Virus record (IMG/VR): IMGVR_UViG_2534682080_000005
Length of the DNA: 21,704 nt
Strand: one strand, 5' to 3'
Source of the DNA: a virus
Lineage: Duplodnaviria; Heunggongvirae; Uroviricota; Caudoviricetes; Drexlerviridae
Shown: positions 17,448 through 17,804 of the stretch, in pieces
Layout of the letters: each line of letters starts with the position of its first letter
Position numbering within the stretch: position 1 is the first letter of the stretch
Position numbers and translations under genes: made by a program
Notes under the pieces: generated by a model
The model's database searches: none
Seen by the model: the letters and a program-made list of their open reading frames with translations, nothing else
What the model was told of the DNA's origin: nothing

Positions 17448-17531
17448 TTGCTGTCAATTGATGGGAGATTTCGCGTGGCAGGCCTCTTGGGGCATGGGGG
17501 GGCATGAAAAATCAGTGAATTTCGCCAAACA

Positions 17532-17804
17532 TTGCAAACAACACATGTTGATTGCTATCTCCAGCCATTGAAAATGGCGCTCCTGGACGATATTTGTCGA
17601 TTTTTAAATTTACCGCGTCACGCGCACTCTGTATCGGGTACTGCTGCAAGCGCAGGTACACACGCACATACTGTCGGTATTGGTGCTCATACGCACTCGG
17701 TTGCGATTGGCTCACATGGACACACCATCACCGTTAACGCTGCTGGTAACGCGGAAAACACCGTCAAAAACATCGCATTTAACTATATTGTGAGGCTTGC
17801 ATAA
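17532..17804 (+). pseudogene. stf: Orphan 3' fragment of a lambda/T4 gp37-type side tail fibre gene (stf remnant)
   Basis: C-terminal ...[56 protein letters not shown] with His-x-His repeats, recognised as the conserved C-terminal tip of Stf-type fibres; stop overlaps the tfa start (TAATG) as in intact stf-tfa pairs. No RBS or plausible N-terminus; the upstream ~30 codons look unrelated. Confidence 0.6.

Follow-up and report, generated by a model that had tools for sequence, protein, structure and literature searches.

The window analyzed here, a stretch of 21,704 nucleotides, is a lambda-like prophage late region that is ~98% identical throughout to prophages of E. coli CFS3313, Ec42, and C21. 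Lambda itself was also matched. Downstream of J and lom lie a 1152-aa fiber ORF, a 79-aa ORF, a 105-aa S24/UmuD′-like ORF, an interval (17448-17804) that had been singled out in the initial annotation, the tail fiber assembly gene tfa, and an ea47-like gene on the opposite strand (Table 1). Relative to CFS3313, the closest relative, 1-base indels, mostly in homopolymer runs, were observed at positions 1987, 2027, 3859, 3875, 3908, 7519, 7842, 11874, and 17498/17499. Homologs of L (from 7054), K and J (9131-11926/11884-12627) are broken up by these single-base indels, and the tape-measure gene is likewise represented by two ORFs (4169-5290 and 5484-6728). The indels and the split L, K, and J genes could reflect either error-prone sequencing or a decaying prophage.

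Table 1. Features of the window around the chimeric fiber gene and tfa, in order of position.
Feature	Position	Strand	Basis or remark
J			upstream of lom
lom	12697-13296		gene order
Chimeric fiber ORF, 1152 aa	13361-16819	+	gene order
Lambda Stf-type N-terminal anchor, codons 1-126 of the 1152-aa ORF	13361-13738	+	Pfam PF08400
Left junction, GCAGCC microhomology (6 nt) common to stf and donor fiber	13733-13738	.	alignment
Foreign fiber shaft and SGNH/GDSL esterase distal region	13739-16819	+	PF13472/PF00657 at aa 996-1137
LexA-box-like palindrome TACTGTATGTTTGTGCAGTA	16853-16872	+	CTGT-N8-GCAG, 1 mismatch to CTGT-N8-ACAG; read from sequence
79-aa ORF, first module gene	16891-17130	+	hypothetical protein in the annotation of relatives
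105-aa UmuD′-like (S24-like) ORF	17130-17447	+	start is the equivalent of UmuD Gly25
attP/attR arm of a yecE-integrating phage (phiP27-type integrase), not stf-derived	17448-17616	+	similarity to Klebsiella phages and E. coli attR
GTCACGC, first 7 of 21 bp of the yecE-type att core	17617-17623	+	alignments; crossover point directly after
Orphaned stf 3′ end	17624-17804	+	61 in-frame codons from 17619; four HxH motifs; TAA 17802-17804
GAGG Shine-Dalgarno for tfa	17792-17795	+	8 nt before ATG, inside the stf remnant; read from sequence
tfa, intact, 194 aa, tail fiber assembly chaperone	17804-18388	+	PF02413 (Caudo_TAP), E 6e-45
ea47-like gene		-	gene order

Comparison with intact loci confirmed that the DNA directly upstream of tfa is the 3′ end of a lambda-type (lambdoid) stf gene, as had been proposed. 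Against the intact stfR-tfa loci of B1-56 and C21, blastn homology ends at 13738 and restarts at 17625 with 96.8-98.7% identity. The remnant DNA is 96.8% identical to intact stfR alleles; the closest intact stf allele found, that of CFSAN061770, shows 3 differences in the 186 nt of the remnant. Over their whole length, the 61 encoded amino acids (HAHSVSG...NYIVRLA) are alignable to the C-terminal 61 residues of T4 gp37 (PDB 2XGF residues 182-242, E 2.8e-23), and the four HxH motifs agree with the His-x-His-rich Stf/gp37 C-terminus described in the initial annotation. The overlapping stop/start with tfa was also found as described, the motif TAATG joining the remnant stop codon to the tfa start (ATG 17804-17806). 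The extent of the remnant had to be corrected, however: it starts at 17624 (first in-frame codon at 17619) and not at 17448, and it comprises 61 codons. Nor is the segment the receptor-binding tip for which it had been taken. In the 2XGF structure it corresponds to what we take to be the C-terminal descending strand of the HxH needle/collar of gp37, not to the receptor-binding head.

A complete stf gene, with N-terminal anchor, shaft, both needle strands, head, start codon, and ribosome-binding site, is absent from the flagged interval, where stf homology is seen only from 17624. It had been stated that the fragment has no start codon, ribosome-binding site, or N-terminal body. The last two points held, and inspection of the sequence revealed no Shine-Dalgarno motif before either candidate start; in-frame starts do exist, however (TTG 17532 and ATG 17574), both of them within the foreign DNA of the att arm. 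A second fiber gene encoded in another frame, which the initial annotation had named as evidence against its own reading, was not found: the other frames of 17448-17804 contain no ORF longer than 67 aa. A search of the same interval against Rfam identified no known RNA, and a promoter/terminator consensus scan of the spacer (17448-17804, + strand) returned nothing. In all of the related RefSeq genomes opened, NCBI PGAP labels the same 186 nt as a "missing N-terminus" pseudogene. Judged from its sequence, the remnant is a non-functional relic with no plausible function as a protein. With no difference among 16 carriers across the 181-nt junction probe described below, selection on it is unreadable. 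Taken alone, it is a pseudogene fragment that annotation pipelines have already flagged.

The 176 bases of DNA between the UmuD′-like ORF and the remnant (17448-17623) had been counted as part of stf; they are instead a foreign attP arm of a yecE-type phage. The arm is 87.6-94% identical to Klebsiella phages Mulock, RCIP0034, and vB_VIPKPNMC05. The virion genome of Mulock matches window positions 17358-17623 at 87.6%, and a phiP27-like integrase gene is located 49 nt beyond the match on the opposite strand, which is the geometry of an attP arm. Klebsiella phage ST16-OXA48phi5.2 matches positions 16829-17621 at 89.4%, and in Klebsiella phages this stretch accompanies the two-gene module of the 79-aa and 105-aa ORFs. 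Many E. coli genomes contain the last 94 nt of the arm (17530-17623), at 94.7-100% identity, where the right end of a prophage abuts a truncated yecE by yecD. The arm adjoins yecE′/yecD in W21, WCHEC035148, strain 126, and LR881940, and the equivalent arm in the Stx phages VT1-Sakai and JLK-2012 ends at the annotated att site.

The att of yecE-integrating phages has been described as a 21-mer, GTCA(C/T)GCAGTTAAAGTGGCGG (Nakamura et al., 2021, PMC8112680). At the right junction the window reads TTTACCGC, then GTCACGC, then directly GCACTCTGTATCGGG. The attR of W21 reads GTCACGC followed by AGTTAAAGTGGCGG, and intact stf reads GGCG CTCATAC followed by GCACTCTGTATCGGG. Bases are att-specific up to G17622, C17623 is common to both partners, and stf-specific bases begin at G17624. 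By these alignments, position 7 is the last base of the 21-bp core before the right joint, which is situated on the inner side of the left half-site GTCAC. Only positions 1-7 of the core are present: a scan of the whole window allowing up to 3 mismatches (≤3) found neither the full 21-bp core nor a partner att site for excision of the cassette. An attL and attR surrounding an inserted prophage, the mark of prophage-in-prophage integration, are absent from the window, which holds the right half-site only. In ST16-OXA48phi5.2 (5778-5830), the same arm abuts a LysR-family gene and the central segment of the core is different (GTCAC CGTGGTGAC GTGGCGG), which suggests that this integrase family tolerates, or co-evolves with, different overlap sequences.

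At the left junction the window tracks stf to 13730 and, from 13739, a fiber of the Lambdavirus PDP110P1/MEI008 type. The joint follows stf codon 126, where the PF08400 anchor domain (aa 1-132 of the chimeric fiber, E 2e-71) ends. The anchor DNA is 95.8% identical to intact stfR up to 13738 and 87% identical to lambda up to 13736. The loss and recovery of homology to intact stfR-tfa bear out the proposal that the middle of a lambda-type stf was exchanged for a foreign block, and the breakpoints expected near 13735 and 17600 were nearly right, being located at 13733-13738 and 17623/17624. A check for short repeats at both junctions had been suggested. One exists on the left as the GCAGCC microhomology; the right joint, however, lies inside the att core and has no repeat.

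The start of the foreign fiber (13733-14176) is 89.9% identical to the PDP110P1 fiber. A non-lambdoid prophage at argW in E. coli MEI008 carries window positions 13756-17425 contiguously at 97.8% identity, a span that takes in the shaft, the distal SGNH region, and the two genes of the module, in agreement with the view that the distal fiber region and the LexA-box/UmuD′-like pair form one block. The MEI008 cassette has no att arm, stf remnant, or tfa. The yecE prophage of strain 126 carries an SGNH fiber of similar architecture, followed in turn by module, arm, and attR. A donor with all of 13739-17623 in one piece at high identity was not found. The 1152-aa ORF is uninterrupted in the window and in two relatives (L001 2662-6120; L004 14297-17755), while RefSeq/PGAP splits the same fiber into a "tail fiber N-terminal domain" pseudogene and a separate SGNH/GDSL hydrolase. 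This split is an annotation artefact, and caution is warranted wherever an intact chimeric fiber may have been divided by PGAP in this way. The distal fiber region (14177-16819), with its C-terminal SGNH/GDSL esterase domain, was found in only 15 of the 5,426 complete E. coli genomes. The distal SGNH fiber may be a glycan (O-antigen) deacetylase-type receptor-binding or receptor-modifying fiber.

Downstream of the fiber, the LexA-box-like palindrome of the window has a perfect counterpart (CTGT-N8-ACAG) at the equivalent box of the relative SCU-308. The 79-aa ORF had no Pfam match. The product of the 105-aa ORF matches the UmuD/UmuD′ structures 8GMT and 1UMU over aa 2-44 only (E ~1e-4), and its start (MGFPSPATDY...) falls exactly at the UmuD-to-UmuD′ cleavage point. 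The pair of ORFs sits between the last fiber gene and attP in many Klebsiella and E. coli temperate phages.

Tfa is identical at 191 of 194 residues to the Tfa of intact stfR-tfa loci and at 184 of 194 to lambda Tfa. No cognate upstream fiber with an HxH C-terminus was found in the window; the sole fiber ORF ends in the SGNH domain (...IVSAVLKLM). A scan of the + strand detected no terminator-like site after 17004 up to the tfa stop codon, and the ribosome-binding site is retained in the last 20 nt of the remnant; production of Tfa from late transcripts that read through is therefore still probable. The gene was intact in every carrier of the junction examined; this intactness is uninformative on selection because the junction block shows no divergence, and hence no time signal, among most carriers. 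An Rfam family of sRNA candidates, RF02111 "IS009", was matched at full length inside tfa (18147-18345, + strand; 221.6 bits, E 1e-55), where it coincides with the tfa coding sequence.

The distribution of the right junction was studied with a 181-nt probe (17530-17710) searched in 5,426 complete E. coli genomes. The probe was matched, mostly via its stf part, in 61% of them. The junction itself was present in 17, at 100% identity in 16 and at 97.8% over 181 nt in one. Among GTDB species representatives the exact junction was absent, and in IMG/VR it was found in one contig. A degenerate pattern designed for other stf alleles recovered nothing but this IMG/VR contig and a single contig from a metagenome; with 99-99.95% identity to the window, both are members of its lineage. 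Five carrier loci were fetched from the E. coli genomes. They are prophages at ompW, tRNA-Pro/yejM, prfC (two), and att-lambda, with different fiber distal regions (at least three fiber genes) and different tfa alleles, and one of them is a contractile-tail prophage. The replacement had been described as an event in this phage; the presence of an identical junction in 17 E. coli genomes, on different backbones and with different fiber genes, argues against such specificity.

The flanks of the junction show how it may have moved. Compared with CFS3313 and NRZ106056, the window has 0 mismatches from 17400 to 17829 apart from one indel, and then 4-5% divergence inside tfa. The SNP pattern shows tfa alleles diverging from 17830 onward, and from ~17945 the tfa and downstream DNA of the window match the intact-stf phages B1-56 and C21 instead. 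A zero-mismatch block followed by an allele switch in tfa indicates that the right-hand crossovers that moved the block lie inside tfa. Within tfa, positions 17830, 17911, 17924, and 17944 (and 17920 in most comparisons) differ from nearly every comparator. The segment 17830-17944 can be read as a short patch of a third, unsampled tfa allele, which would fit repeated recombination within this gene. The locus shows the pattern expected of phage mosaicism, in which the inner block is identical and the flanks change allele within conserved genes. These observations point to one origin of the junction and its subsequent spread by homologous recombination in tfa. It has been shown that lambda recombines with prophages inside stf/tfa, and lambda x Rac recombination in tfa has been seen experimentally (De Paepe, 2014, PMC3945230).

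We propose, with an estimated probability of about 75%, that the locus combines an stf relic, a cassette from a yecE-integrating phage, and a joint at half an att site, and that the combination spread after it had formed. The donor would have been a temperate phage integrating at yecE, which contributed a block of ~3.9 kb (13739-17623) made up of a fiber without its own N-terminal anchor, the two-gene module with its LexA-like box, and the attP arm up to core base 7. This block would have replaced stf from codon 127 to ~61 codons from its end. The left joint would have formed via the 6-nt microhomology where the Stf anchor domain ends, and the right joint would be the work of the donor tyrosine integrase, acting on an stf sequence that is not its cognate partner. 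Two routes can be envisaged for the partner event: the donor might have integrated into a resident lambdoid prophage, with a deletion afterwards, or a double crossover might have taken place. Subsequently the block of cassette, half att, stf′, and the start of tfa would have spread among lambdoid backbones and one contractile-tail backbone, using homology in J/lom/stf-N on the left and in tfa on the right. The result is an ordinary mosaic recombination scar with an unusually readable origin.

Regarding the enzyme, we lean slightly toward catalysis of the right junction by the integrase. The donor breakpoint lies within the 21-bp core, and only ~220 nt separate the stop codon of the UmuD′-like ORF from the integrase gene in the donor. 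The crossover falls between core positions 6 and 8, beside the left core half-site, where by our prediction strand exchange would take place. It is also known that lambda-like prophages serve as integration targets for yecE-type phages (PMC8112680). The stf target agrees with the att core at 9 of 21 positions, and 7.4% of stf positions score 9 or more (≥9), with a maximum of 13/21. The target is at background similarity, and so the target side gives no support for involvement of the integrase. The two partners differ at nearly all of their central bases; going by lambda Int, such a mismatch should block the complete reaction. The reciprocal junction, CTCATACNNNTTAAAGTGGCGGG, was not found in IMG/VR or among GTDB species representatives.

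The best-surviving alternative concerns only this joint and leaves the rest of the account unchanged. It holds that the right junction is a random illegitimate join at 1-3 nt of microhomology that fell in the att core by chance, which we consider unlikely, if still credible. An stf target no closer to the att core than background fits such a join, as does the lack of a reciprocal product in the two collections searched, and the left junction of the same cassette is itself a plain microhomology join of 6 nt. A random break would, however, have had to fall inside the 21-bp core beside half-site GTCAC within the ~220-nt stretch between module and integrase; by our estimate, it would hit the core with a chance of ~0.1 and come within 1 nt of the observed position with a chance of ~0.01-0.02. 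Coincidence is not statistically excludable because there is only one independent event.

It is improbable that the replacement happened within this one prophage, through exchange between short repeats at both ends, leaving a local scar with a partnerless tfa that is decaying or has been retargeted. A local event is compatible with the position of both breakpoints, about where they had been predicted, and with the intact tfa directly downstream. It does not account for a base-for-base identical junction in 17 genomes, nor for five carrier loci that represent four integration sites, at least three fiber genes, and one contractile-tail prophage. The right junction has no repeat, and the 3′ part of tfa and the b region of the window derive from a C21/B1-56-like backbone, unlike those of the closest cassette relatives.

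Still less probable, to the point of being hard to entertain, is that the remnant is translated from ATG 17574 or TTG 17532 as a functional "mini-Stf" of 76-90 aa, serving in Tfa binding or in translational coupling to tfa. Tfa-type chaperones act on the C-terminal regions of fibers, the frame is open from 17532 with in-frame starts present, and the 186 nt are perfectly conserved in 16 carriers; this perfect conservation, however, leaves no divergence from which selection could be read. Neither start is preceded by a Shine-Dalgarno motif, the first 15-29 residues would come from att-arm DNA, and tfa has its own GAGG, so that coupling is not required. Moreover, the segment, presumably one strand set of the interdigitated gp37 needle seen in 2XGF, should not fold alone without its partner strands. 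Finally, the many 1-nt homopolymer indels relative to close relatives suggest error-prone sequencing and might have hinted at a chimeric contig assembled from two phages, but an artefact is refuted: 17 E. coli genomes that were finished independently carry the same junction, as do single contigs from IMG/VR and from a metagenome.

The proposed history of the locus, a yecE-phage cassette joined to an stf relic at half an att site and then spread, makes it a clean and datable example of tail-fiber cassette movement, with both joints resolved to the base. One of them sits within an att core already described, a position that would implicate an integrase in the making of a chimeric fiber, and the stub together with tfa evidently served as the homology arm on the right during later spread. 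For the study of phage recombination, the half-att joint is of modest interest. For phage engineering, it is relevant that the 126-residue lambda Stf anchor suffices in nature to carry a foreign SGNH fiber. A broader generalization is speculative and, in our view, doubtful: yecE-type integrases might occasionally recombine attP with the conserved stf 3′ end and, together with a crossover at the anchor boundary, graft a foreign receptor-binding cassette and an SOS-box module onto lambdoid tails, with the stf′-tfa stub then acting as a portable homology arm between backbones, from siphovirus-type to contractile-tail phages included. If true, this would constitute an integrase-initiated route to the exchange of host-range modules.

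Several known systems resemble the locus in part. The T4 gp37 needle domain (PDB 2XGF) aligns with the remnant at 61/61 residues with ~80% identity, HxH motifs included; the window, however, contains the final strand only, without the collar, the ascending strand, or the receptor-binding head, and is a fragment rather than a domain. In lambda PaPa, according to what Hendrix and Duda reportedly described in 1992, stf is frameshifted (orf-401/orf-314) and tfa is intact. As in the window, a broken stf is there followed directly by an intact tfa (orf-194) with the same TAATG overlap, and the phage is viable without side fibers. The whole stf is present in lambda PaPa with a 1-nt deletion, whereas in the window foreign DNA takes the place of ~2.8 kb of stf, leaving 61 codons. 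Mosaicism of tail-fiber genes among lambda, P2, Mu, P1, and T4 is said to have been reported by Haggard-Ljungquist in 1992 and Sandmeier in 1994. In such mosaicism, whole functional distal parts are swapped and no orphan fragment is left, in contrast to the window, and the site-specific enzymes are invertases (Gin/Cin/Pin), not a tyrosine integrase. Both fiber mosaicism and the recombination of lambda with Rac/Qin in stf-tfa share with the window the conserved stf 3′ end and tfa as the homology for exchange; the crossovers in tfa are experimental in that work (PMC3945230), whereas those of the window are deduced from the SNP pattern. Prophage-in-prophage integration via yecE-type att sites (Nakamura et al., 2021, PMC8112680) involves the same family of integrase and att and likewise lambda-like E. 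coli prophages as recipients. In those cases a complete captured copy of attB was used, and attL and attR survive around an intact inserted prophage. In the window, by comparison, 7 bp of the core and one arm are retained, the partner is stf coding sequence at background similarity, and the inserted phage has been reduced to its fiber cassette.
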